Shown here: piece after piece, positions 23,535 to 43,158 of the stretch | How the letters are laid out: each line of letters begins with the position of its first letter | Position numbering within the stretch: position 1 is the stretch's first letter | Source: an uncultured Acidobacteriota bacterium | Lineage (GTDB): Bacteria; Acidobacteriota; Thermoanaerobaculia; Multivoradales; UBA5704 | Assembly (NCBI GenBank): GCA_963792575.1 | Contig: CAWBWZ010000023.1 | Coordinates: forward strand, 1,295,487-1,359,486 | DNA length: 64,000 nt | Reading direction: 5' to 3' | Program-made: the position numbers and the translations under genes | The notes under the pieces: generated by a model | What the model saw: the letters and a program-made list of their open reading frames with translations, nothing else | Databases searched by the model: none | Told to the model about the DNA's origin: nothing

Positions 23535-23780
23535 ACGTAGGGGAGGGGCTTGTCCCCTCCCTCGCCCCGAAGGGGCGGAATTTATCCAGCCTGGGGTGTC
23601 AACCCCAGGTAGGAAGGCACCCCGGAATCCAAACCCTGTAAGGGTGGCCGATTCCAGCCCGATCGGCCACCCCTTCGGGGTTTGGGTGGGTTGGGCCACC
23701 CAACCTGGGGTTGACACCCCAGGCTGGATAAATTCGCCCCCTTTGGGGGCGAGGGAGGGGACAAGCCCCTCCCCTACGTA
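23535..23780. repeat. nested-palindrome REP/MITE-like element, family 1, copy A2
   Basis: Inverted arms of about 70 nt, ACGTAGGGGAGGGGCTTGTCCCC...GCCCCGAAGGGGCGGAATTTATCCAGCCTGGGGTGTCAACCCCAGGT. The core is near-identical to A1. Confidence 0.85.
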
Positions 23781-25172: not shown

Positions 25173-26177
25173 CTAGCCTGGACGCCGGATCGCCACGATC
25201 GTCTCGTCCTCGGTGTAATACCCGGCGTCCGACCAGGCGTCCAGCCCCCCTTCGAGGGGGCGGACCCGGGTGAAGCCTTTGTCCATCAGAGCGCGAGCCA
25301 CACGGGCCGCGGAGGCTTCGCTCGGTCAGGCACAGTAGAGGACGATCTCGCGCTCCCGCGGCAACTCGCCGAGCCGGACGTCGATCTCGTCGATCGTCAT
25401 CCGCAACGCTCCGGGGAGGCGCCGCGGGTCGTGGAGATGGGAGGAACGGTTGCGGACGTCGACGATGGTCGGCGCGTTGCCGCTGTCCATCAGGCTCTTC
25501 AGCTCGGCGACCGAGATGCGGGCGAGCCGCAGGATCTTCCGGATCCGCCGCCGCTGCCACCATTTCACCAGGATGACCAGCGCCAGCACCACGCCCACGA
25601 CCACGCCGGCCCAGAAGCCGAGATCCTCCAGATGGCGGAGAACCTCGTTCACGGCATGATGGAAGACGTAGCCGAGCAGCAGGCCGGAGCTCAGCCAGAG
25701 GAGGCTGCCGAGGCCGTCCCAGAAGAGGAAGGAGGGGATGGTCTTGTTCATCGCTCCGGCGAGCGGCGGCGCGATGGTGTTGTAGCCGGGGAGGAACTTG
25801 GCGTAGAGCAGGGACGGCATGCCGGCCCGCTCGAAGAGATCCTCGGTGCCGCGGACGCAGGAGTCGGGGGAGAGCGAGAGGCGGCAGACCGTGCGGAGCA
25901 CGCGGTGCCCCTGCCAGCGGCCGATCAGGAACCAGATGGTGTCGGCGAGCAGCGACGCCGCGAGGGCCACGGCGAGCACCGGGACGACGGCCATTTTCCC
26001 CCCCTGCGCCAGCGCCCCGGCGACGATCAGCGTCGGCAGCGCGGGGATCGGCGCGCCGATCTGCTCCAGGAAGACGTTGCCGAAGACGACCGCGAGGCCA
26101 TAGCGGAGGAGGTAGGTGACGAGCTTGTGCATGGCGGGGGGTATTGTCGCATGGGGCGGAGGGAGGTGAGCCTGCAT
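25173..26177 (-). CDS. DedA-family membrane protein fused to a rhodanese domain; in-frame TGA at 25326-25328
   Basis: ORF 25326..26177 has the DedA core (VFLEQIGAPIP...LYAKFLPG) and a rhodanese start (TIVDVR...IVLYCA). After the TGA the same frame continues PSEASAARVARALMDKGFTRVRPLEGGLDAW to a TAG at 25173. The true start may be ATG 26132. Confidence 0.65.
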
Positions 26178-26318
26178 CCCGCCCGGGGATCAATCCCCGG
26201 GCTACGCTGGAAACGAAAAGCCGGCTGAAGCCGGCTCCCAGGTTAGCAGCTGTCTCCTTGAGCCGGCTTCAGCCGGCTTTTTGGTTGGGACGTAGCCCGG
26301 GCATTGATGCCCGGGCGG
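26178..26318. repeat. palindromic element D carrying two terminator-like hairpins
   Basis: The outer arms CCCGCCCGGGGATCAATCCCCGGGCTACG / CGTAGCCCGGGCATTGATGCCCGGGCGG enclose AAAAGCCGGCTGAAGCCGGCT and AGCCGGCTTCAGCCGGCTTTTT. Confidence 0.8.
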
Positions 26319-26324
26319 CCCCGC

Positions 26325-26355
26325 TTGACATCCCCGCCGTCTCGTGGGATATCCT
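26325..26355 (+). promoter_or_regulatory. candidate sigma70-type promoter of the aro-his-trp leader
   Basis: Perfect TTGACA at 26325-30. GATATC or TATCCT follows after a 17 or 19 nt spacer, about 20 nt upstream of the leader ATG. Confidence 0.45.
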
Positions 26356-26376
26356 TGAATCTCAACGGGATTTTAG

Positions 26377-26463
26377 ATGATGCGCCAAAACACCACCCGC
26401 CGCCCCGAGATCGCCACCGCCTGGGGCTGGCGTGCGCAGAGCCATCATCACTCCGTGAACTGA
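26377..26463 (+). CDS. 28-codon leader peptide MMRQNTTRRPEIATAWGWRAQSHHHSVN
   Basis: Translated by hand because it is below the ORF-track cutoff. TGG codons are at 26422 and 26428, and CAT CAT CAC is at 26443-51. Attenuator hairpins follow directly. Confidence 0.7.
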   Translation: MMRQNTTRRPEIATAWGWRAQSHHHSVN

Positions 26464-26534
26464 GCCGGGCACGTCCCGGCGTCACGGACCCGGGACGAGA
26501 GACCGCCTGCCGCCACACGTCGCCTCCTTCCGGG
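26464..26534 (+). promoter_or_regulatory. alternative antiterminator / anti-antiterminator hairpins
   Basis: The pairs 26464-69:26475-80, 26473-79:26490-96 and 26489-99:26524-34 overlap one another and are mutually exclusive. Confidence 0.6.
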
Positions 26535-26556
26535 TCTGGAAGGAGGTTTTCGTTTT
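26523..26556 (+). terminator. intrinsic terminator of the leader; its 3' arm is the aroD/E Shine-Dalgarno
   Basis: 9-bp stem CCTCCTTCC / GGAAGGAGG, loop GGGTCT, then TTTTCGTTTT. Confidence 0.75.
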
Positions 26557-28045
26557 GGAGACATCGCCCGCGCGGGCACGCGCCACACTGGTCGCGACCG
26601 TCACGACCCTCCCCGCGGGGAGCGCCGTGCCCATGGTCTCCGACCTGGAGGGGGTCGACTGGCTGGAGATCCGCGCCGATCTCGTCGGCGACCTCGACGC
26701 CGCGCGTCTGGCCCGCGTCTTCCCCGGCAAGCTGCTCTACACGCTGCGCAGCCGGGCCGAGGGGGGCGGGTCCGAGGGGACGCCCGAGCGCCGCCGACAG
26801 CGGCTTGATCGAGGCCGCCAGCCGCTACGACTATGTGGACCTCGAGGCGGCGCGCGATCTCACTCCCGATATCCTCAAGGGCGTGCCGGCCGAGAAGCGG
26901 GTGATCTCCTGGCATGGGCCGGCCCCGGGGCTCGACGGCCTCACCGCCACCTTCGAGCGGATGGCCGCCGTCCCCGCCGCGCTCTACAAGCTGGTGCCCA
27001 CCGCCGCCCAGGCGGGGGAGGAGGTGCAGGCGCTGCTGCTGCTCGCCTCGCTCGGCCGCCGCGACGTCGCCGCCTTCGCCGCCGGCGCCATCGGCGCCTG
27101 GACGCGGCTGGTGGCCCCCCGCCTGGGCGCCCCGGTGGTCTACGGCGCGCTCGGTGAGGTGCCGGGGGCGCCAGGGCAGATCTCGATCGAGCGCCTGCGG
27201 CGCGACTACGGCCTGCCGGAGTTGCCGCCCATCGAAGCGCTGTTCGGCCTGGTCGGCAACCCCGTCACCCACTCGCTCTCCCCCCGCATCCACAACACCG
27301 CCTACCGCGCGCTGGGCATCCCGGCGGTCTATCTGCCGTTCCACGCCGACTCCTTCGGCGACTTCTGGCTGGAGGTGATGGAGAACGCGGGGCTGGAGGC
27401 GATCGGGCTCTCCATCCGCGGGCTCTCGGTGACCGCGCCGTTCAAGGAGTCGACGCTGGCGGTCTGCGGCGCGGAGAGCCCGCTGGTCAGCCTGATCGGC
27501 GCCGCCAATACGCTGGTCTGCAACCAGGGGGTGTGGGAGGCGGAGGCCACCGATCCGGACGGCGTCGTGCTGCCCCTGCGCGATCGCGGCCTCGCGATCG
27601 AGGGGATGGAGGTGGCGGTGGTCGGCGCCGGCGGTGCCGGGCGATCGGCGGCGGCGGGGCTCGACCGCGCCGGCGCGCGGGTGACGATGTTCAACCGCGA
27701 TCCGCAACGCGGCAAGAGCTCCGCGCGATCATCTGCATGTCACCTTCCGGCCGCTCGCGGATCTCGACCCCTCCCGGTTCGACCTGCTGGTCAACGCCAC
27801 CTCGCTCGGCCGCGGCGCGGACGATCCGCTGCCGTTCGACGTCTCGCGGCTCCGCGAGGGCGCGGTGGTGATCGACCTCGTCTACTTCCCGGACCGGCCG
27901 ACCCGCCTGCTGACGGCGGCGGCGGCGCGGGGCGCGGTGGCGATCGACGGCCGCGAGGTGCTGGTGGATCAGGCCCGCGGGCAGTTCCGGCTGATGACCG
28001 GGCGCGACCTGCCGCTCGAGCTGGCCCGCCGGGCCGCCGGATTGA
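26555..28045 (+). pseudogene. aroD/aroE: fused 3-dehydroquinate dehydratase (type I) / shikimate dehydrogenase (frame disrupted; 3' end uncertain)
   Basis: TTG start. VDWLEIRADLVGDL (DHQase I). LVGNPVTHSLSPRIHN, SVTAPFK and VVGAGGAGRSAA (AroE). Frame switches near 26800 and 27715. Confidence 0.8.
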
Positions 28046-28056
28046 GAGGACGCCCC

Positions 28057-29016
28057 GTGAGAGTCTCCGCTGCCCTTCCCACCGGCGTCGCCGCCCTGCT
28101 CTTCGAGAGCGCCCGGCGGCGGCGCGATGCCGAGGAGCGGCTGGTGGCGCGGCTGATCGAGGCCGGCTACTCCGAGGTGATCCTGCCGATCCTCGACTAC
28201 CTGGAGCCCTACGAATCGCTGCTGACCCTGGCGACGCGCGGCGAGCTCTACCGCTTCGTCGACCGCGACGGCGAGCTGCTCGCCCTGCGCGCCGACTTCA
28301 CGCCGATGCTGGCGCGGCTGCTGGCGCCCCGGCTGGAGTCGCTGGAGCTGCCGCTGCGCCTCTACTACCGGGGGGACGTCATTCGCTATCAGGAGGAACG
28401 GGCGGGTCGGGCGCGGGAGTTCTACCAGATCGGCGCCGAGCTGCTCGGCCTCGCCGGCGAGCGGGCCGAGCGAGAGGTACTGCGGCTTTTCCTGGAGCTG
28501 GCCACGGCCGGCGGCGGCAACGGGCTGCAGGTGGTGCTGGGCTTCGCCGGGGCGCTCGACGAACTGCTGCTCGCGGCGGGCGCGGAGGATCCCACCCGCC
28601 TCGCGGCGGCTGTGGCGCGGCGCGAGCGCGGGGAGGTGCGGCGGGCGGGCTCGACCCTCCTCCAGGTGGTGGAGAACGGCGTTCCGGACCGGCCGGAGGA
28701 GCTGGGAGGAGAAGCGGCGGACCGGCTGCGCGGCCTTTATGCCCTGCGCGATGAGCTCGCCGCTGACTTCCCCGGCGTGCTGCTGACGATCGATCTCGCC
28801 GAGTTCGCGTGCAGCAACCTCGACCCGCTCCTGGCGGGAGGCGAGGGGGACCGCCCCTACTACGACGGCCTCGTCTTTCATGCCTACGCCGGTCCCGCCG
28901 CGCTGCCGGTGGGCGGCGGCGGGCGCTACGACCGCCTGTTCCGCGCCCTCGGCGCCGAGGTGCCCGCGGCGGGCTTCTCGCTCAGCCTGGAGCGATTGCT
29001 GGAGGCGTCGGCGTGA
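28057..29016 (+). CDS. hisZ: ATP phosphoribosyltransferase regulatory subunit
   Basis: GTG start after GAGAGGA. LIEAGYSEVILPILDY, LRADFTPMLAR, EFYQIGAELLG, GGGGRYD. The frame is uninterrupted inside ORF 27865..29016. Confidence 0.8.
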   Translation: MRVSAALPTGVAALLFESARRRRDAEERLVARLIEAGYSEVILPILDYLEPYESLLTLATRGELYRFVDRDGELLALRADFTPMLARLLAPRLESLELPLRLYYRGDVIRYQEERAGRAREFYQIGAELLGLAGERAEREVLRLFLELATAGGGNGLQVVLGFAGALDELLLAAGAEDPTRLAAAVARRERGEVRRAGSTLLQVVENGVPDRPEELGGEAADRLRGLYALRDELAADFPGVLLTIDLAEFACSNLDPLLAGGEGDRPYYDGLVFHAYAGPAALPVGGGGRYDRLFRALGAEVPAAGFSLSLERLLEASA

Positions 29017-29638
29017 TCCGCCTCGCTCTCCCCAAGGGGCGAAATCTCGACGCCGCGCTGGCCGCTTTCCGGGCGGCGGGGATCGGCCTCGACGGCCTCG
29101 ACGGCTCCGGCCGGAGCCTGCGCACGCGCCTTCCCGACGAGGGGATCGAGGTGCTCTCCCTGAAGGATTGGGACCTGCCGCTCTACGTCACGCACGGGAT
29201 CGCCGATTGCGGCATCGTCGGCAGCGACGTGCTGGAGGAGGTGGACGGCGACCTGCTGGTGCCGGTGCGCCTGCTCCAGGGGCGGTCGCGGCTCTCGCTT
29301 CATCGGCCGCGAAGACGCGCCTCCCGGCGGCGGGGACCCAGGTGCGCCTGGCGACCAAGTATCCGAACACGGCGCGGCGGATGGTGGCCGAGCGCGCCTG
29401 GGGGGCGGAGATCGTCAAGCTCTCGGGCTCGATCGAGCTCGCGCCGATCCTGCGCCTGGCCGAGCTGGCGCTCGACATCGTCCAGACCGGGCGCACGCTC
29501 GCCGAGAACCACCTGGTGGAGATCGAGACCGTCGCCGAGGTCGCCGCCTGCCTGGTGGTCAACCGCGCGTCCTACCAGCGCCACCGGGCGTCTCCTCAAC
29601 GACTGGATCGGCCGCCTTGAAGCGGCGGGGGTGGTCTC

Positions 29639-29642
<4 letters not shown>
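29013..29642 (+). pseudogene. hisG: ATP phosphoribosyltransferase, short form (2 frame switches)
   Basis: IRLALPKGRNLD, GIADCGIVGSDVL, RLATKYPN and DIVQTGRTLAENHL. GTGA overlap with hisZ. Confidence 0.9.
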
Positions 29643-30942
<1,300 letters not shown>

Positions 30943-30953
30943 ATCCGTTGTTT

Positions 30954-31114
30954 CCAGCCCCGAAGGGGCGGCATTTGAATAGCCTGGGGCGTAAGCCCCA
31001 GGTAGGAGTGTCCCCAATACCCCCGAGCCCCGAAGGGGCGACACACAATGTGCCGGCGGGGTTTACCTGGGGCTCACGCCCCAGGCTATTCAAATGCCGC
31101 CCCTTCGGGGCTGG
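30954..31114. repeat. nested-palindrome element, family 1, copy B (hisD|hisC gap)
   Basis: CCAGCCCCGAAGGGGCGGCATTTGAATAGCCTGGGGCGTAAGCCCCAGGTA and its inverted copy, 30954-31004 / 31064-31114. Confidence 0.85.
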
Positions 31115-31141
31115 GGATGGGGTGGCTCGGAGGGTGGCCGC

Positions 31142-32215
31142 ATGACCTCCCCTCTCGATCCCGCCCTCTTCGTCCGTCCCGAGCTGCGGGCGCTCGGGGC
31201 CTATCACCTCGACCTGACCCCCAGCCGGCACAAGCTGGACCAGAACGAGGTGCCCTGGGATCTCCCGCGCCGCTTCAAGGGCGAGATGGCGGCGCGGCTC
31301 CTGGCGGCGGACTGGGCGCGATACCCGGATTTCCACGCGGACGAGCTGCGCCGGGACCTCGGCCGCCTGCACGGTCACCCGTTCGAGGGGGTGCTGGTGG
31401 GAAACGGCTCCAACGAGCTGCTCTCCGTGGCGCTGACGGCGCTGGTCGCTCCCGGGACCGAGGTGCTGGGAGCCGAGCCGAGCTTCGGGCTCTATCGCAG
31501 CTTCGTCCTCAAGGCCGGCGGCATTCCCCGGTTCCTGCCGCCGCGGGCGGACCTCAAGATCCCCATCGATGAGCTGGAGGACGAGGTCGAGCGCGATCCC
31601 CGCCGGCCGCTCCTCCTCTGCACGCCGAACAATCCGACCGGCGATGCCCTCGCCGGTCGAGCGCGTGGAGCGGCTGCTCGAACGGTTGGAGGCGCCGCTG
31701 CTGCTCGACAACGCCTACGGCGAGTTCTGCCGGTACGACTACCGGCCACTGCTGGCGCGCTACCCCCACCTGATCGTCTTCCGCACCTTCTCCAAGGCGT
31801 GGTCGCTCGCCGGGATGCGGCTCGGGTACCTGCTGGCCGATCCCCGGCTGGTGACCGAGCTGATCAAGGTGAAGCTGCCCTACAACCTCGGCCATGCCGG
31901 GGTGATCGCCGGCCGGGTGGCCCTGGAGGCGGACGCGGAGGCGCGGCGCCGGGTACGGCTGCTCGTGGCCCGCCGGCCGCAGTGGGCGGCGATGCTGGCG
32001 GAAGAAGGCTTCGAGGTCTTCCCCTCTGAGGCGAACTTCCTGCTCGTCCGCTGCTCGCCGCCGGAGCGGGCGCGCGAGGTGCGGGAGATGCTGGAGGCGC
32101 GGAGCATCCGGGTGCGCGACGTCAGCGGCTATCCGGGGCTCGCCGGGTGCATCCGGGTGTCGATCGGCACCGGGGCGTCGCTGCGGGCGACGCGGGCGGC
32201 GATTGCGGGGCGAAC
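31142..32215 (+). pseudogene. hisC: histidinol-phosphate aminotransferase (frame switch near 31645; no stop before element E3)
   Basis: KLDQNEVPW, VGNGSNELL, NNPTG, FRTFSKAWSLAGMRLGY (PLP Lys) and IRVSIGT. Confidence 0.85.
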
Positions 32216-32275
32216 CCTCACCCCCCGGCCCCCTCTCCCGTCCCCTCCCGCCCTCCCTCACCGGGAGAGGGGGAG
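32212..32275. repeat. family 2 element, solo arm E3 at the hisC|hisB junction
   Basis: About 60 nt near-identical to the left arm of E2 (GAACCCTCACCCC...CCCTCCCTCACCGGGAGAGGGG). Confidence 0.85.
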
Positions 32276-32290
32276 AAGGAGAGGACAGGG

Positions 32291-32876
32291 ACGGTCGAGC
32301 GCGCGACCGGCGAGACCCGGATCCATCTCAGTCTCCATCTCGACGGCGGCGCGCGGCGCATCCAGGTCCCCAACGGCTTCTTCGCCCACATGCTGACGGC
32401 GCTCGCGACTCACGCCGGGCTGGGGATCGATCTCGTTGCCGAGGGGGACACCCACGTCGACCTCCATCACACGGTCGAGGATGTGGGGATCGCCCTCGGC
32501 GAGGCGCTGGCCGGCGGCGCTGGGGGACCGGCGGGGGATCGTCCGCTTCGCCCACGCCTACGCGCCGCTCGACGAGGCGCTGGCGCGGGCGGTGATCGAT
32601 CTCTCCGGACGCGGCACCTTCCACTACGCGGCGCCGCCCGAGATCGCCGGCGGCTGGGTGACGGCGGACTTCCCACTCACCCTGGTCGCCGACTTCTTCC
32701 AGGCGCTCGCCGACCGCGGGCGGTTGACGCTCCATCTCGACATCCTCGCCGCCCGCAACGGCCATCACGCCGCCGAGGCCGCTTTCAAGGCCGCGGCTCT
32801 GGCGCTTCGCCAGGCGATCGCGCGGCGTTCGGGATCCACGGATGTGCCGAGCACCAAGGGGACGCTGTCGGCATGA
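32291..32876 (+). pseudogene. hisB: imidazoleglycerol-phosphate dehydratase (start unclear; frame switch near 32520)
   Basis: VERATGETRIHLSLHLDG, HMLTALATHAG, DLHHTVEDVGIALG, GHHAAEAAFKA. No ATG, GTG or TTG is present; ACG at 32291 follows AAGGAGAGG. Confidence 0.8.
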
Positions 32877-33492
32877 ACGCAGCTCTGTCATCGACGCCGG
32901 AGTCGGCAACCTCGGCAACCTCGTCCGCGCCGTCGAGCGGGTGGGCGGGCAGGCCGGGATCAGCGCCGATCCGGAGCGGATCGCCGGCGCCCGCTGCCTG
33001 CTGCTGCCCGGGGTCGGCGCCTTCGCGCCCCCTCGCGAGGCGGTGCGCGGCGGTGTCGAGGAGGCGCTGCGCGAGGCGCTGGCGCGAGGGGCGTGGCTGC
33101 TCGGCATCTGCGTCGGCTTCCAGATCCTGTTCGACGAGGGGGAGGAGTTCGGCGCCACCGACGGTCTCGGCCTGCTCCCCGGCCGCGTCACCCGCCTGCC
33201 GGCGACCGTGCCGGTGCCGCACATCGGCTGGAACCGGCTGCACGGCGTCACGGCTCATCCGCTGCTGGAAGGTCTGGCCGATCGCTACGTCTACTTCGTC
33301 CACAGCTACGCCCCCGAGGGGGTGCCGGACGACCTCTGTCTCGCCCGCTGCACTCACGGCCGCGCCTTCCCGGCGGCCGCCGGGCGCGAGCGGGTGATGG
33401 GCACGCAGTTCCACCCCGAGCGCAGCGGTCCGGCCGGGCTGCGGCTGCTCACTAATTTTCTGAAGATGCCTGGAGATGGCGCATGGAGCTGA
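32873..33492 (+). pseudogene. hisH: imidazole glycerol phosphate synthase, glutaminase subunit (indel near 32888)
   Basis: VIDAGVGNLGNLVRAVE, LLPGVGAF, GICVGFQIL (Cys nucleophile), and HSY / FHPERS. Confidence 0.9.
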
Positions 33493-34192
33493 TCCCCGCG
33501 ATTGACCTCCGTCACGGCCAGGCCGTCCGTCTCCGCCAGGGGGACGACGCCCAGGCCACGGTCTATGGCGACGATCCGGTCGCCGTGCTGGAGTCGTACG
33601 CCCGCGCCGGCGTGGCCCGGGTCCACGTCGTGGATCTCGACGCCGCGCTGGGCGAGGCGCCGCAGCGGGAGCTGGTCGAGCGCATGCTGGCTGTGGGCGC
33701 CAAGGTCCAGCTCGGCGGCGGCCTGCGCGACCGCGAGGCGATCGACTGGGCACTCGGCGCCGGCTGCGACCGGGTGGTGATCGGCTCCATGGTGGCGCGG
33801 GACGTCGACGGCTTCCGCGCCCTGGCGGAGGAGCGGCCCGGCTGGCTGGTCCCCGCCCTCGACGTGGCGAACGGCGAGGTGCGGATCGCCGGCTGGCGGG
33901 AAGGGGCGTCCCGCGGTCTCGGGGATCTCTGCGGCCATCTCATGGGCGTGCCCTGCCCGGCTATCCTGGTGACCGACGTCGAGCGCGACGGCATGATGAC
34001 CGGCCCGAACCTCGGGCTGTCTCTGCGGGTGGCGCGCACCTCCGGGCTGCCGGTGCTCCTCTCCGGCGGGGTCCACGCTCTCTGCGATCTGGAGGCGGCG
34101 CGGCGGCTCCCCGAGATCGCCGGCGCGATCGTGGGGCGGGCGCTCTACGAGGGGCGTTCACGCTGGAAGAGGCGCTGGCCGTATGTTCTTGA
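33483..34192 (+). pseudogene. hisA: ProFAR isomerase (indel near 34155)
   Basis: [38 protein letters not shown] and SGGV. Confidence 0.9.
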
Positions 34193-34965
34193 ATGGACCC
34201 ACGGGGCTCGCGCGGCGGGTGATCCCCTGCCTCGACGTCGCCGCCGGCCGGGTGGTCAAGGGGGTGCGCTTCGAGAACCTGCGCGACCAGGGGGACCCCG
34301 CCGAGTCGGCGCTCCGCTATGCGGAGCAGGGGGCGGACGAGATCGTCTTCCTCGACATCAGCGCCGCCCCCGAGGAGCGGGATACTGACGTCGAATGGGT
34401 CCGCCGCACCGCCGAGCAGGTCTTCATGCCGCTCACCGTGGGCGGCGGCGTGCGCAGCGAGGCGGACGCCAAACGGCTGCTGCGCTCCGGGGCCGACAAG
34501 GTCGGGATCAACTCCGCCGCCGTCGAGCGGCCGGAGCTGATCCGCGAGCTCGCCCGCCGCTTCGGCAGCCAGTGCGTGGTGCTCTCCGTGGATGCCCGCA
34601 AGCGCGAGGGTGGCTGGGAGGTGGTCACCCGCGGCGGGAGAAACGCAACCGGCATCGACGCCTTGGCCTGGATCCGCGAGGGGGTCGAGCGCGGCGCCGG
34701 GGAGATCCTGCTGACCAGCATCGACCGCGACGGCACCCAGGGTGGATATGACCTGGCGCTGATCGAGGAGGTTTCCGCGGCCGTTCCCGTGCCGGTGATC
34801 GCCTCCGGGGGCGCCGGCGAGGCCGCGCATCTCGTGACAGCCCTCGCCGCCGGGGCCGCGGCCGTGCTCGCCGCCTCTATCTTCCATCAGGGGACTTATA
34901 CCGTGGGGGAGGTGAAGCGGGAGATCGCGGCGGCGGGGTTTCCCGTGCGGGAGGAGATGGAATGA
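34183..34965 (+). CDS. hisF: imidazole glycerol phosphate synthase, cyclase subunit
   Basis: Intact 260-aa ORF: [42 protein letters not shown]. Confidence 0.95.
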
Positions 34966-34973
34966 AAGTCTTT

Positions 34974-35178
34974 TCAGCCCCGCAGGGGCGTCATGAATTA
35001 GCCCGGGGCGTGAGCCCCGGGGAGGTGATGATGGTTTCCCCACCAGCCCCGCAGGGGCGGCAGGGCGACCGCGCCGGTGAATTTCCTGCCGCCCCTGCGG
35101 GGCTGGCGTTTGGAATTGCGGACCGCCTTTCCCGGGCCTCACGGCCCGGGCTAATTCATGACGCCCCTGCGGGGCTGA
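34974..35178. repeat. nested-palindrome element, family 1 architecture, copy C (hisF|hisIE gap)
   Basis: TCAGCCCCGCAGGGGCGTCATGAATTAGCCCGGG... and its inverted copy, plus the inner inverted repeat CAGCCCCGCAGGGGCGGCAGG / CCTGCCGCCCCTGCGGGGCTG. Confidence 0.85.
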
Positions 35179-35194
35179 TTCCGGAGACCCGGCG

Positions 35195-35843
35195 ATGATC
35201 GATCTCGCGGCTCTCCGCTTCGACGACCGCGGCCTGATCCCCGTCGTCGTCCAGGACGTCGGCAGCGGCGCGGTGCTGATGCTCGCGTACGCCGACCGCG
35301 AGGCGGTCGAGAAGACGCTCTCCACCGGCCAGGCGCACTTCTGGAGCCGCTCGCGGCAGTCGCTCTGGAAGAAGGGGGAGACCTCCGGCAATACCCTGCA
35401 GGTGGTGGAGATGACCGCCGACTGCGACGGCGACGCCCTGCTGGTGCGCGCGCGGCCGGCCGGGCCGACCTGCCACCGCGGCACGCGGAGCTGCTTCGAG
35501 CCCAACGCCGCCCGGCTGGAGCTCGGATGGCTGGCGGCGGTGCTCGAATCCCGGCGGGACGCCGACCCGGAGACGAGCTACACGGCGCGGCTGCTCGCCT
35601 GCGGCATCGAGCGGATCGCCCAGAAGGTGGGGGAGGAGGGGGTCGAGACGGCGATCGCGGCGGTTTCCGCAGTCTCTTCGGGGGCCGGGTGAGGAGGGAG
35701 AACGGCGCCAGGCCCTGGTCGGAGAGGCGGCGGATCTCCTCTATCACCTGCTGGTTCTGCTGCAGGCGAGCGGGGTCGATCCGGGGGAAATCACAGAAGA
35801 GTTGATTCGGCGGCACGGTTTTGCTTCCTCGGGACACTCCTAA
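35195..35843 (+). pseudogene. hisIE: bifunctional phosphoribosyl-AMP cyclohydrolase / phosphoribosyl-ATP pyrophosphatase (frame disrupted near 35670-35700)
   Basis: LIPVVVQD, FWSRSRQSLWKKGETSGN, DCDGDALL (HisI); TSYTARLL and EAADLLYHLLVLL (HisE). Confidence 0.85.
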
Positions 35844-35894: not shown

Positions 35895-37351
35895 ATGTCT
35901 GAGGGGGGTTCGCGCCGGCCGCGCCGGGCCGTGCCGCACGTTCGTGAATTTCTTGCCGACAGCCTGACGCCGCTCGGCGGTCTACCGGCGGCTCACCGCG
36001 ATTTCGCCGTACCGCTTCCTGTTCGAGAGCGTGGCCGGCGGCGAGCCGGGTCTCCCGCTTCAGCTTCCTCGGCGCCGCGCCGCGGGAGATCTACCGGCTC
36101 TATCCCGACCGCCTGGAAGTCGAGCGCAAGGGGCAGAGCGAGACACTGCCCGGCGAGCCGCTCGCGGCCCTGCACGCGGTCCTCCAGGGGGTCCACAGCG
36201 AGCCCGGGCCGATCCCGTTCACCGGCGGTTTCGTCGGCTACTTCGGCTACGACCTGATCCGCCTCGTCGAGCGCCTGCCCAACCGTCCCGCCGATCCCTT
36301 CGACCTCCCCGTCGCCCTGCTCGCCCGCTTCGACACCCTGGTGGTCTTCGACCACGCGCACCAGCGGGTGCTGGCGATCGCCAACGAGATCGAGGGGGAG
36401 GTGAGCGTCGACGAGGCGGAGAAGGAGCTGGCGCGGCTGTCGGGGCTGATCACCGAGGAATCAGGAGGCGGCGGCGTCGCCATGCCGGGGCAGTCCCCCG
36501 GGCCGGCCGCCACCGACCTGCCGAGCCTCGACAGCGCCGAGCTTCCGCCGCGCCGTGCAGAAGGCCAAGGAGCACATCGCCGCCGGCGACATCTTCCAGG
36601 TCGTGCTGGCGCGCCGCTGGCGGGTGCCGCGGCGGATCGAGCCGCTCGCCCTCTACCGCGCGCTGCGGATGGTCAATCCGAGCCCCTACATGGTGCTGCT
36701 CGAATCCCCGGACGTGTCGCTGGTCGGCGCCTCGCCCGAGATGCTGGTGCGCAAGCAGGGGCGGCACATCGAGACCCGCCCGATCGCCGGCACCCGGCCG
36801 CGCGGCATGGACGCCGAGGGGGACAAGCGGCTGGCGCGAGGACCTGCTGGCCGATCCCAAGGAGCGCGCCGAGCACGTGATGCTGGTCGACCTCGGCCGC
36901 AACGACCTCGGCCGCGTGGCCGTGCCGGGCAGCGTGCGGGTGCCGACCTTCATGGAGATCGAGCGCTACAGCCACGTCATGCACCTGGTCTCCAGCGTCG
37001 AGGCCGAGCTGGCGACCGGCAAGGACGCGCTCGACGCCCTGCTCGCCTGCTTCCCGGCCGGCACCGTCTCGGGCGCGCCGAAGATCCGGGCGATGGAGAT
37101 CATCGACGAGCTCGAGCCGATGGCGCGCGGGCCCTACGCCGGCGCGGTCGGCTACCTCTCCTTCTCGGGGGACCTCGACACCTGCATCGCCATCCGCACC
37201 CTGGTGGTCCGCGCGGGGGAGACCTCGGTCACCGCCGGCGCCGGCATCGTCGCCGACTCCGATCCCGCCGCCGAGGAGGCGTGAGACCCGAGAACAAGGC
37301 GGCGGCGCTGCTCACCGCGGTGGCGCTCGCCGAGGAACTGGAGAGACGGTC

Positions 37352-37355
<4 letters not shown>
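35895..37355 (+). pseudogene. trpE: anthranilate synthase component I (about 5 frame switches)
   Basis: [69 protein letters not shown]. Confidence 0.9.
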
Positions 37356-38960
<1,605 letters not shown>

Positions 38961-38964
<4 letters not shown>

Positions 38965-39761
38965 GCGCCCCCGACATCCTGCTGCGCATCACCGAGCGCC
39001 GCCGGCAGCGGATCGCCGAGGTGGGCGGCGCCGATGCCTCCGATTGGGACGAGGGGGACGCCGCGCACGCCCTCGAACAACGCCTTCCTCGGACATCTGC
39101 AGGCGCGGCGGCGCGATCCGGCGATCATCGCCGAGGTCAAGATGGGCTCCCCCCGGCTCGGCTCGCTGCACGGCCGGGTCGATCCCATCGCCCAGGCCCG
39201 CCTCTACGCCGAGAACGGCGCGGCGGCGCTGTCGGTGGTCGTCGAGCCCGACTTCTTCCACGGCGGCTACGACCTGCTCGCCGCCTGCCGCGCGGCCTCG
39301 GGGCTGCCGGCGATCGCCAAGGACTTCATCGTCGATCCGGTCCAGCTCATCTGGGCGCGCGACGCCGGGGCCGACGCCATCCTGCTGATCGCCGCCCTCT
39401 ACGAGCCGGAGGAGATGGCGCGCTACGCCCGCCTCGCCCGCGGCCTCGGGCTGGTGCCGCTGGTCGAGACCCACGACGCGGAGGACATCGCCAAGCTCGG
39501 CGGCGAGCCGTGGGAGATGGTCGGCATCAACAACCGCGAACCTGCGCACCTTCGACGTCGACCTGGAGAACTCGATCGCGCTGCTCGCCGGCCTGCCGGC
39601 CGAGGCGGTCAAGGTGGCCGAGAGCGGCATCCGCGACGCGCCTCGACGTCGCCCTGCTCGCCGAGAGCGGCTTCGACGCCTTCCTGATCGGCGAGACCCT
39701 GCTGCTCGCCGGCGACCCGGCGGCGAAGCTCCGCGAGCTGCTGATCGGAGCGGAGGTCTGA
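38961..39761 (+). pseudogene. trpC: indole-3-glycerol phosphate synthase (about 3 frame switches)
   Basis: AIIAEVKMGSP, LSVVVEPDFFHG, AKDFIVDPVQ, ILLIAA, GINNR, AESGI. Confidence 0.9.
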
Positions 39762-39762
39762 C

Positions 39763-40385
39763 GTGGCGGTCAAAGGTCAAGGTCTGCGGCGTCACCGATC
39801 CCGGCCAACGCGCTGGCGGCGGTTGAAATGGGCGCCGACTACCTGGGGTTAAACTTCTATCCGGGCAGCCCGCGGTACGTCAGCATCGAGCGGGCCCGGG
39901 AGATCGCCGGGGCGGTGGGCGGCCGGGTGCCGCTGGTGGGCGTGTTCGTCAACGCGCCGGCCGCCGAGATCGCCGAGACCGTCGGAGCGCGTCGGTCTCG
40001 ACCTCGTCCAGCTCAGCGGCGACGAGGGGCCGGAGACGGTGGCCCCGTTCGCCGGCGCGGGCGATCAAGGCCTTCCGCACCGGCGGGCTGCCCGGCGCGC
40101 GCGGAGCTGGCGGCCTGCGGCGAGGTCTGGGGGGTCCTGATCGACGCCCCGCACGGCGCGCTCTACGGCGGCACCGGCGAGGCATGGAAGTATGACTCGG
40201 TCGCCGGCCGCCGGCGCGCTGCGGGCCGGCGGCTCTTCCTGGCCGGCGGCATCGGCCCGGACAACGCGCGGCGCGCGGTCGAGGCCGCCCGCCCCTATGC
40301 GATCGACGTCTGCTCGCGGGTGGAGTCCGCCCCCGGGATCAAGGATCTGCGAGCTGCTGCGGCGGCTCTTTCAGGAGGTGAGAGC

Positions 40386-40390
<5 letters not shown>
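39763..40390 (+). pseudogene. trpF: phosphoribosylanthranilate isomerase (frame disrupted; both ends approximate)
   Basis: [63 protein letters not shown]. Confidence 0.8.
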
Positions 40391-41655
<1,265 letters not shown>

Positions 41656-41659
<4 letters not shown>

Positions 41660-42481
41660 GCGCGATCGACGAAGTCTTCTTCAACTGCGCCCGCGAGAAC
41701 CGGGGCGCCTTCATCCCCTTCCTGATGGCGGGCGATCCGGACCTGAACGCCACCGCCGAGTACCTCGACGGCGCTCGCCGCCGGCGGCGCCGACATCATC
41801 GAGCTCGGCGTGCCGTTCAGCGATCCGATCGCCGACGGGCCGATCAACCAGCGGGCCGCCGTCGCGGGCGCTCGCCGCGGGCACCAAGATGTCGGGCATC
41901 CTGCAGCTCGTGGCCCGGCACCGCGACAAGCTCGGCGTGCCGATCGTCCTCTTCACCTACTTCAACCCGATCCACGCCCGCGGCGTCGAGCGCTTCGCCG
42001 AGCAGGCGGCCGCCTCCGGCGTCGACGGCGTGCTCTGCGTCGACCTGCCGCCGGAGGAGGGGGAGCGGGAGTTCATCCCGGCGCTGCGCGAGCAGGGGGT
42101 GGACACCATCTTTCTGCTCGCCCCCACCAGCACCCGCGACCGGGTGACCAAGGTGGCCGAGGCCTCGACCGGCTTCGTCTACTACGTCTCGCGCACCGGG
42201 GTCACCGGCGAGCGCTCCGCCCTGGCGACCGATCTCGCGCGCGACGTCAAGCGGCTGCGCAAGCGGCTCGACCAGCCGCTCGCCGTGGGCTTCGGCATCT
42301 CGACCCCGCAGCAGGTCGCGGCGGTGGGCGAGGTCGCCGACGGCGTGGTGGTGGGGAGCGCGCTGGTGCGGCTGATCGAGGAGCAGGGGAGCGAGCCCGG
42401 CTTTCCGCGCACTGCTCGAGGAGCGGGTGCGCGAGCTCGCGGCCGCCGCTGCGCCAGCGCGCCGAGAGGCGGCGGGCTTGA
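41656..42481 (+). pseudogene. trpA: tryptophan synthase alpha chain (about 3 frame switches; 3' end approximate)
   Basis: [66 protein letters not shown] overlap with trpB. Confidence 0.9.
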
Positions 42482-43158
42482 GCGGCGAGCGCGCGCGAGG
42501 AGCGGGAGATCGCGGCCCTCGTCCACGGCCGCTACCTCCTCGAAGCCCCGGCGGAGCCGGCGGGGTGCCCGCTGCTGGTCGGATTCCACGGCTACGGCGA
42601 GAACGCCGAGAAGCAGCCTGGAGGAGTTGCGCACGCATCCCCGGGGCCTCCCGCTGGGTGCTGTGCGCCGTGCAGGCCCTCCACCCCTTCTACAACCGGA
42701 CGGGGGACGTCATCGCGAGCTGGATGACCCGCCAGCAGCGCGAGCTGGCGATCCTCGACAACATCCGCTACGTCGGCGAGCGTGGTCGCCGAGGTGAAGC
42801 GCGAGCTCCCGCGTCTCCGAGCGGCTGGTCTTCCTCGGCTTCTCGCAGGGGGCGGCCATGGCCTACCGCGCCGCCGCCGGCTCCGGCCACGCCTGCCGCG
42901 GCGTGATCGTGCTCGGCGGCGACGTGCCGCCGGAGCTCGAGAGCCGCGACCTCGGCCATTTCCCGCCCGTCCTGCTGGGGCGCGGCACGCAGCGAGGAGT
43001 GGTACGACGCCGCCAAGATGGAGCACGACGTCGAGCTCCTGCGCGGCCGGGGGATCGACGTCCGCCCCTGCGTCTTCGAGGGCGGGCACGAGTGGACGAA
43101 CGAATTCCGCGCCGCCGCCGGGCGGTTCCTGCGCGAGGTGTTCCAGCCGGCTTCGTAG
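42478..43158 (+). pseudogene. phospholipase/carboxylesterase-family alpha/beta hydrolase (frame disrupted; start unclear)
   Basis: [28 protein letters not shown] (GxSxG), VIVLGGD, FEGGHEW. Confidence 0.65.

Follow-up and report, generated by a model that had tools for sequence, protein, structure and literature searches.

A conserved leader with tryptophan and histidine codons ahead of a fused aro-his-trp operon in Acidobacteriota: a probable two-input attenuator

How can a single operon be controlled if its products are two amino acids made by separate pathways? This question is raised by a locus in the DNA analysed here (the window: a stretch of 64,000 nucleotides of contig CAWBWZ010000023.1 from an uncultured bacterium of the phylum Acidobacteriota), where a fused aroD/E gene is followed by a complete set of his genes and then by the trp genes, hence, in agreement with the initial annotation, the operon makes both Trp and His. 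The element in question is the leader ahead of aroD/E, which comprises a short open reading frame (ORF) with Trp and His codons and a chain of hairpins formed by five segments, S1 to S5. In the 60-nt, T-rich gap between hisIE and trpE we found no second leader, ORF, hairpin or terminator, and thus the leader is the only recognisable control point for approximately 17 genes. We consider it likely that this leader is a ribosome-mediated (leader-peptide) attenuator acting as an OR gate for Trp and His. With somewhat less assurance, we suggest that it belongs to a family in which a conserved S1-S5 chassis acts at two levels and has its specificity set only by a few leader codons, these having been reprogrammed between Trp plus His, Trp only and His only as the operons fused, split or lost genes.

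The leader ORF translates as the initial annotation had claimed, with the Trp and His codons in their expected places (Table 1). It has two Trp and three His codons among 28, compared to the background of 0.9% Trp and 1.3% His in the window's own genes (1282 codons), and is preceded by a weak Shine-Dalgarno (SD)-like sequence GGGA (26367-70). A profile scan for AroD/E, with one genome per species, returned 80 loci, of which 62 have an ORF of 19-37 codons with an ATG start ahead of aroD/E. A scan of metagenome contigs for a DNA pattern (GTCCCGG..CCGGGRC..CTCYTTCC) was too loose, as only about 8 of 120 among the matches listed were true elements; these were informative for the comparison. The ORF, the position of its stop codon and the helices are conserved together in more than 70 loci of Thermoanaerobaculia, the class to which the element belongs within the Acidobacteriota, so that, as anticipated earlier, the same hairpins preceded by a short ORF carrying Trp and His codons are indeed found upstream of orthologous operons. 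A covariance model was built from 63 relatives; it picks up the element in every related operon and has one match in the window (E = 1e-41), with no further copies there.

In the 62 relatives, the N-terminus of the leader peptide is free both in sequence and in length, and the tail is fixed as W(G/A)W(R)..HHH(S/A)V(N/S) followed by the stop. The distance between the end of the stop codon and S1 is 0 nt in 41 of 58 leaders and falls between -1 and +4 nt in 56 of them. Three codons separate the last His codon from the stop in 44 of 62 leaders, the last His codon mostly lying 12 nt before S1, and the last Trp codon is 9-11 codons ahead of the stop in 51 of 62. The abutment of the stop codon on S1 fits a switch governed by the position of a ribosome. 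The His codons themselves vary synonymously among relatives (148 CAT, 76 CAC).

If both codon sets are sensing elements, the codons should follow the genes downstream, and we therefore compared the leaders with the gene content behind them, established either through tblastn or through the Pfam matches of called genes (relatives' loci are given by their L numbers). All (aroD/E-)his-trp operons (n = 40) have one to three Trp codons and a run of at least two His codons. In 19 more cases, where the his genes are present and the contig ends before the trp position, there are again one to three Trp codons, and the His run is seen in 18, the exception being HAHRH. All operons with trp and without his (n = 11) keep Trp codons, and only three of them have a His run of this length. 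The two his-only operons (L201 and L204, where hisIE is followed by convergent genes) have zero and one Trp codon, respectively, and HHH in both, whereas their his-and-trp sisters (L202, L203, L205, L206, L207) have two or three Trp codons, with tails such as LAWRWWGPAHHSVT and GLGWWAGAHHHSAD. Finally, a single case of aroD/E alone, the first element in L125, retains one Trp codon and no His run (GWRGLIQNRMS, then the stop). Thus, a run of at least two His codons is observed in 60 of 61 his-containing operons vs. 3 of 12 his-less ones (Fisher p = 2e-8, phylogeny not being taken into account), and at least one Trp codon, in all 51 trp-containing operons.

The his-less operons occur at five to six or more separate places on the neighbour-joining AroD/E tree, in each case beside his-containing sisters. 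Within one his-less clade, the run degrades step by step, from HHH (L015, L028) to HHR (L156) and PHR (L142); other trp-only tails are CWRRHVQRRAS, CWRGRAQHRLS, CWRSSGQGHALS, SWQWCAHLQAI, PWRWRGVVHAFGVS and GWWRRSVHRVA. Two sister pairs are CWRSSAHHHAH (L076) vs. CWRSSVIIACVR (L077), one base apart, and GWRGMAHHHVS (L078) vs. the first L125 element given above; the second L125 copy, which precedes a trpE-first operon, has WW and no His run. We observed no element ahead of aroD/E genes without his or trp genes behind them (those of hisZ-first lineages, e.g. L035 and L039, included), with the exception of the reduced, Trp-codon-only element of L125.

Thus, the element combines Trp and His codons with matching trp and his genes, and the loss of either gene set goes with the loss of the respective codons. 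As the codons come and go with the genes in about 75 relatives, the leader very probably senses both amino acids, as the initial annotation had proposed, and judging from these sequences the pattern is hard to explain unless each codon set senses its own pathway. A leader of single specificity, either His only or Trp only, with the other residue retained for RNA pairing or for the peptide, would be in line with the overlap between the UGG codons and a possible 5-bp partner of S1, and with the complementarity of the CAT codons to the ATG start region. However, in operons that have lost the his genes the His runs decay while both the RNA switch and the Trp codons are kept, and in the his-only operons it is the Trp codons that fall to zero or one, the switch and the His run being retained; the synonymous variation of the His codons also speaks against this view. 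We thus regard single specificity as very improbable. The same comparison shows that the RNA switch itself is independent of either codon set.

What is this switch? Inverted-repeat search and folding bear out the previously described chain of hairpins S1:S2, S2:S3, S3:S4 and S4:S5 (helices P1 to P4, respectively). As each pair of neighbours has an arm in common, adjoining helices are mutually exclusive, and taken in isolation all four are nearly isoenergetic (Table 1). In P3, 12 of 13 positions are paired, including one G.U, with one C.C mismatch. P4 (26522-32 / 26537-47) has an 11-bp GC-rich stem and a 4-nt loop and is followed by TTTTCGTTTT. Its 3' arm contains the aroD/E Shine-Dalgarno sequence GGAGG (26542-46), and the TTG start codon (26555-57) lies within the U-tract; this sequestration and the outer stem of P1 are additions to the initial annotation. 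The latter also had GCCTGG over the first Trp codon (26419-24) pairing with S1; this does not hold in that register, the possible pairing being limited to CCUGG (26420-24) and CCGGG (26465-69), 5 bp with one G.U. An equivalent 5-bp helix, also containing a G.U, may form over the second Trp codon (26427-31 / 26464-68), and it is the one chosen by RNAalifold. The general layout is that of an attenuator: a predicted terminator lies between the leader ORF and the first gene, and the antiterminator that excludes it is governed by the segments abutting the ORF.

Taken alone, the sequence has an unexceptional folding energy (z = -1.13 against shuffles), and at 67% GC such a score is uninformative; hence the significance of the element rests on conservation. 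In the alignment of 63 distinct homologous elements (pairing is given as the fraction of alignment cells), S1:S2 is paired in 98.7% of cells, S2:S3 in 99.8%, with two pairs changed on both sides, and the S4:S5 terminator in 98.6%, with five such pairs. The S3:S4 antiterminator is paired in 86%, with one conserved mismatch, and the outer P1 stem in 72-77%, with compensatory changes. Changes on both sides of a pair exceed those in shuffled and slid controls, most clearly for S2:S3 together with the terminator (8 pairs vs. 1.7 expected, a count that none of 500 shuffles attained). RNAalifold, run unguided, returned S2:S3 and the terminator, together with the 5-bp helix between the Trp codon and S1.

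Conservation of the core (GCCGGG..GTCCCGG..CCCGGGACGAG..CCTCCTTCCGGG) is so high that one could think of an RNA that binds a ligand or a protein, i.e. a riboswitch or a TRAP-like target, with the ORF being incidental. However, two alternative partners explain each conserved block, and near-invariant core blocks are to be expected if every arm must fit two partners; there is neither a multi-stem junction nor a conserved unpaired pocket, and the start, frame, stop position and codon content of the ORF are conserved and track the genes downstream. Both in the whole window at gathering thresholds and in 26150-26700 at E <= 10, Rfam cmscan matched no leader family, RF00514 and RF00513 included, and no other family at the site of the element. 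Such an RNA is thus hardly credible here. A TnaC-like arrest of the nascent peptide, in which W-x-W-R...HHH-S-V would stall the ribosome in response not to scarcity of charged tRNA but to some ligand, such as a free amino acid, could account for the fair conservation of residues other than Trp and His, namely, R after W and S-V before the stop. On the other hand, the S-V codons fall on the outer P1 stem, where compensatory changes occur, the WR motif is swapped for WW or WC in several clades, and neither the length nor the N-terminus of the peptide is conserved; moreover, biosynthetic operons need induction on scarcity, and sensing at the codon level provides just that. We hold peptide arrest to be highly improbable. 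Both these alternatives leave unexplained the variable N-terminus, the synonymous variation of the His codons, the placement of the stop and the tracking of gene content.

Table 1. Features of the leader region and of the operon (positions in the window).
Feature	Position	Strand	Basis
-35 box TTGACA	26325-26330	+	read directly; CTTGACA in the corresponding place in nearly all relatives
Probable extended -10 box TGgGATATC	26345-26353	+	read directly; putative promoter role
Leader ORF, ATG start, 28 codons and TGA, MMRQNTTRRPEIATAWGWRAQSHHHSVN	26377-26463	+	read directly; 62 relatives
Putative Trp regulatory codons TGG GGC TGG	26422-26430 (Trp at 26422-24, 26428-30)	+	read directly
Putative His regulatory codons CAT CAT CAC	26443-26451	+	read directly
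Leader stop codon TGA	26461-26463	+	read directly
Helix P1: inner S1:S2, 26464-69 / 26475-80 (6 bp); outer stem, 26452-58 / 26482-88	26452-26488	+	folding, -20.0 kcal/mol
Helix P2 (S2:S3), predicted anti-antiterminator, 8 bp, 26472-79 / 26490-97	26472-26497	+	folding, -18.0 kcal/mol
Helix P3 (S3:S4), predicted antiterminator and anti-sequestor, 26487-99 / 26524-36	26487-26536	+	folding, -20.9 kcal/mol
Helix P4 (S4:S5) and U-tract, predicted intrinsic terminator	26522-26556	+	folding, -18.1 kcal/mol
aroD-aroE fusion (3-dehydroquinate dehydratase / shikimate dehydrogenase), first operon gene	26555-28066	+	PF01487, PF08501
hisZ, G, D, C, B, H, A, F, IE	28063-35830	+	ORF reading, tblastn, Pfam
trpE, G, D, C, F, B, A	35895-42797	+	ORF reading, tblastn, Pfam; trpB by position and motif only

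In the proposed mechanism, transcription would start approximately 20 nt before the leader ORF, and the outcome would be set by the position of the leading ribosome. If Trp- and His-tRNA are both plentiful, the ribosome would reach the stop codon and its footprint would mask S1, hence S2 would pair with S3 as the latter emerges, S4 would be left free to pair with S5, and transcription would terminate at the U-tract; in the transcripts escaping termination, S4:S5 would also bury the Shine-Dalgarno sequence of aroD/E. If either Trp- or His-tRNA is scarce, the ribosome would stall in the His run or, 9-11 codons short of the stop, at the Trp codons, with S1 outside its footprint in either case. 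S1 would then pair with S2, and S3 with S4 as the antiterminator, leaving S5 and the Shine-Dalgarno sequence free, so that the aroD/E-his-trp operon would be transcribed and translated; upon a stall at the Trp codons, the outer P1 stem would join the S1:S2 hairpin. As a stall at either codon type would give read-through, the leader would act as an OR gate. The features of the sequence and their conservation, the geometry and the covariation of leader codons with gene content are observed; ribosome stalling, the kinetic choice of helices and the relative weight of termination and Shine-Dalgarno sequestration are the parts of this scheme that we infer.

The geometry of the leader is consistent with this scheme. 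The footprint of a ribosome reaches approximately 12-13 nt 3' of the first base in the A site. A ribosome whose A site holds the stop codon would cover 26464 to about 26473, that is, S1, while the footprint would end at 26455-61 for a His codon in the A site and at 26434-40 for a Trp codon. Thus, given the established footprint, a ribosome at the stop codon is expected to mask the first arm, and a ribosome at the regulatory codons, to leave it free. When the transcript was folded to the end of S4, the probability of the antiterminator was 0.88-0.99, S3:S4 dominating while S5 is untranscribed. The alternation A:B/C:D/E:F versus B:C/D:E, known from the enterobacterial his leader and invoked by the initial annotation, is supported, and no computational test capable of refuting the interpretation did so.

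Nevertheless, a number of observations speak against an attenuator of this kind. For the full-length leader at equilibrium, the probability of the terminator is approximately 0.95 whatever the position of the ribosome, so that folding at equilibrium under ribosome masks fails to show the switch and was discarded as an account of it; since the full-length equilibrium always favours the terminator, the choice of helices must be kinetic, that is, co-transcriptional. Once S4 has been transcribed, the equilibrium ensemble for a ribosome at the stop favours S3:S4 over the truncated S2:S3. An untranslated leader should form S1:S2 first and read through by default, unlike the E. coli trp leader, unless the weak helix between a Trp codon and S1 matters; this helix, the sole candidate upstream partner for S1, is weak and shows no covariation. 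There are only two to four His and one to three Trp codons, compared to seven His codons in the enterobacterial hisL, and the strong conservation of the core RNA leaves limited room for covariation. On the comparative side, the Fisher test above ignores phylogeny, the his-only sample comprises two operons, one of which (L204) still has a Trp codon, and HHH is still present in the his-less L015 and L028.

The probable double role of the S4:S5 hairpin brings up one more alternative, purely translational control, where S4:S5 would only sequester the Shine-Dalgarno sequence and the start of aroD/E, translation of the leader would open it, and there would be no regulated termination. The position of GGAGG in the 3' arm of the hairpin and of the TTG start in the U-tract is what one would expect in this case, and in the aroD/E-trp operon of L057 (9845-9995) the leader ORF and S1-S3 are lost, while S4:S5 with the Shine-Dalgarno sequence in its 3' arm is retained directly after the promoter. 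However, the 11-bp GC-rich stem with a 4-nt loop, followed by UUUUCGUUUU and kept across the family, has the canonical form of an intrinsic terminator, and to govern 17 genes via translation of the first one would require polarity or coupling. Control by translation only seems unlikely to us, and since the translational and transcriptional modes are compatible, the attenuator proposed here takes in both. From its structure, P4 probably works both as a terminator and as a Shine-Dalgarno sequestor, providing control at the levels of transcription and translation.

Leaders responding to several amino acids are known, and thus the suggestion that a leader of dual specificity has no precedent stands for the combination of Trp and His and not for the principle. 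The leader of the thr operon has Thr and Ile codons, and the leaders of ilvGMEDA and ilvBN have Ile, Leu and Val codons. As in the present case, one leader ORF has codons for several amino acids, and starvation for any of them relieves termination; however, their amino acids come from one branched pathway family, whereas here the pathways are separate, share only phosphoribosyl pyrophosphate and are encoded by a fused super-operon. Hence the Trp and His leader is a new combination, not a new principle. A search of full-text literature found neither a Trp and His leader nor a characterised acidobacterial attenuator, subscription titles being covered in part, so that an earlier mention is possible.

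Similarly to the enterobacterial hisL (RF00514), the acidobacterial leader has a short ORF with consecutive His codons before the stop, alternative hairpins and a terminator ahead of the his genes. It differs from hisL in having two to four His codons instead of seven, in the lack of sequence or model similarity, in the addition of Trp codons, in a terminator that apparently doubles as a Shine-Dalgarno sequestor, in the phylum, and in the presence of aro and trp genes in the operon. With the E. coli trpL (RF00513) and the actinobacterial trpE leaders it shares one to three Trp codons located within the first pairing segment or close to it and, presumably, the selection of the antiterminator or the terminator by the ribosome position; the E. 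coli leader, however, has four segments rather than five or six and gives no model match, whereas in the acidobacterial one the stop codon abuts the first strong stem and His codons are present as well. The closest parallel in gene content is the aromatic supraoperon of Bacillus subtilis, aroFBH-trpEDCFBA-hisC-tyrA-aroE, which is under TRAP control. There, too, aro, trp and a his-named gene are co-transcribed and a leader attenuator precedes the trp genes, but the sensor is the Trp-activated RNA-binding protein, and there is neither a complete his pathway nor sensing of His.

To our knowledge, nearly all documented cases of leader-peptide attenuation come from Proteobacteria, Actinobacteria and a few Firmicutes, and the Acidobacteriota are a major but poorly studied phylum of soil bacteria. 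New here are the pairing of Trp and His that matches a fused aro-his-trp operon, the phylum, the probable combination of a terminator with a Shine-Dalgarno sequestor, and the visible reprogramming of specificity. If the proposed scheme is true, starvation for Trp or for His alone should switch on all 17 genes, the element would be a natural modular two-input OR-gate sensor, the family would be the first one of leader-peptide attenuators characterised in Acidobacteriota, and textbook leader-peptide attenuation would extend to the class Thermoanaerobaculia of this phylum. The occurrence of one RNA chassis before his-and-trp, trp-only, his-only and aro-only operons, with leader codons changed to match, amounts to a natural experiment; seldom does sequence comparison indicate so directly that sensing resides in the regulatory codons and that point mutations can re-tune them. 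The covariance model offers annotators a cis-regulatory element missed by current databases, and the compact design of a two-input attenuator may be of use in synthetic biology.

The promoter of the leader is presumed from the conservation of TTGACA among relatives. This perfect -35 box, reported in the initial annotation, is present in the window and is separated by a 17-nt spacer from a weak -10 hexamer GATATC (26348-53) with TG at 26345-46; at the -10 position the relatives have TAAGCT, TAATCG or TCGAAT. A scanner for consensus promoters did not call the leader promoter, as its -10 box is weak. In the most distant clade (L066, L073, L076, L079), the leader ATG is located only about 9-10 nt after the -10 box (TCGAAT or TGGAAT), and there the ORF may be translated from leaderless or nearly leaderless mRNA. 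The leaderless short ORFs with poly-Cys runs reported as attenuators in mycobacteria (bioRxiv 10.1101/834739) are likewise a case of codon-run sensing outside Proteobacteria, possibly comparable to L066, L073 and L076, but they respond to a single amino acid, Cys, and have another RNA architecture.

Some further observations concern the region around the leader start. According to the inverted-repeat search, GAUGAUG at the start (26376-26382) is exactly complementary to the His codons CAUCAUC (26443-26449), and the counterpart in relatives is GAUGCGC with GCGCAUC. While CAT prevails over CAC in the leaders, the GC-rich genes of the window show the reverse tendency (6 CAT, 11 CAC). This may point to a helix between the start codon and the His codons, or to a deliberate choice of the rarer His codon. 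Immediately upstream, 6 nt before the -35 box, there is an inserted 140-nt near-perfect palindrome (26176-26318), whose arms (26179-26237 / 26260-26318) are 86% complementary and which bears hairpins resembling terminators, AAAGCCGGCT...AGCCGGCTTTTT; it is missing from L022. The microRNA-like Rfam matches at 26179-26318 in the permissive scan are spurious and come from this palindromic insertion.

As for the operon itself, the start of aroD/E at TTG 26555 is supported by the consensus N-terminus MET.. of homologues. The AroD/E protein is 97% identical to a protein from Thermoanaerobaculia; this best homology, like the Rfam matches to Acido-Lenti-1 described below, points to a high-GC member of that class as the source of the window. 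The reading frame of aroD/E is broken in this assembly. The same holds for most of the operon: aroD/E, hisG, hisD, hisC, hisB, hisIE, trpE, trpD, trpC and trpF/B/A are split over two or three frames as compared to intact homologues. These breaks are probably indel errors of long-read assembly and not a sign of pseudogenisation; the leader is almost identical to those of the Illumina-derived relatives L001, L003 and L022.

In the window, Rfam matches to the Acido-Lenti-1 'sRNA' (small RNA) form inverted pairs at 30956-31002(-) / 31066-31112(+) and 34976-35021(-) / 35131-35176(+), with one more match at 23563-23609. Each pair (regions 30950-31115 and 34968-35180) bounds an insertion of approximately 160-210 nt missing from the 96-97% identical L022, where hisD and hisC, as well as hisF and hisIE, abut. 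Thus bounded, the Acido-Lenti-1 motif behaves like the terminal inverted repeat of a mobile palindrome resembling a miniature inverted-repeat transposable element, here situated inside the operon.

Rearranged operons are seen in the relatives as well. In a hisZ-first lineage (L201:718-5693, L202:1-4725, L203:2325-7348, L207:5244-8542), the his(-trp) operon has its own leader at hisZ, and at the same four loci a leaderless aroD/E is followed by genes for a full-length histidyl-tRNA synthetase and an aromatic/histidine ammonia-lyase. In L007, the operon is interrupted after hisD by a gene of 975 amino acids on the opposite strand, and a second full copy of the promoter and leader (MMSLNSPRRSITSDDWGWRGSGHHHSVN, then the stop) stands before the distal remnant (L007:15945-16180; also L007:9855-10005); the leader was duplicated when this operon split.

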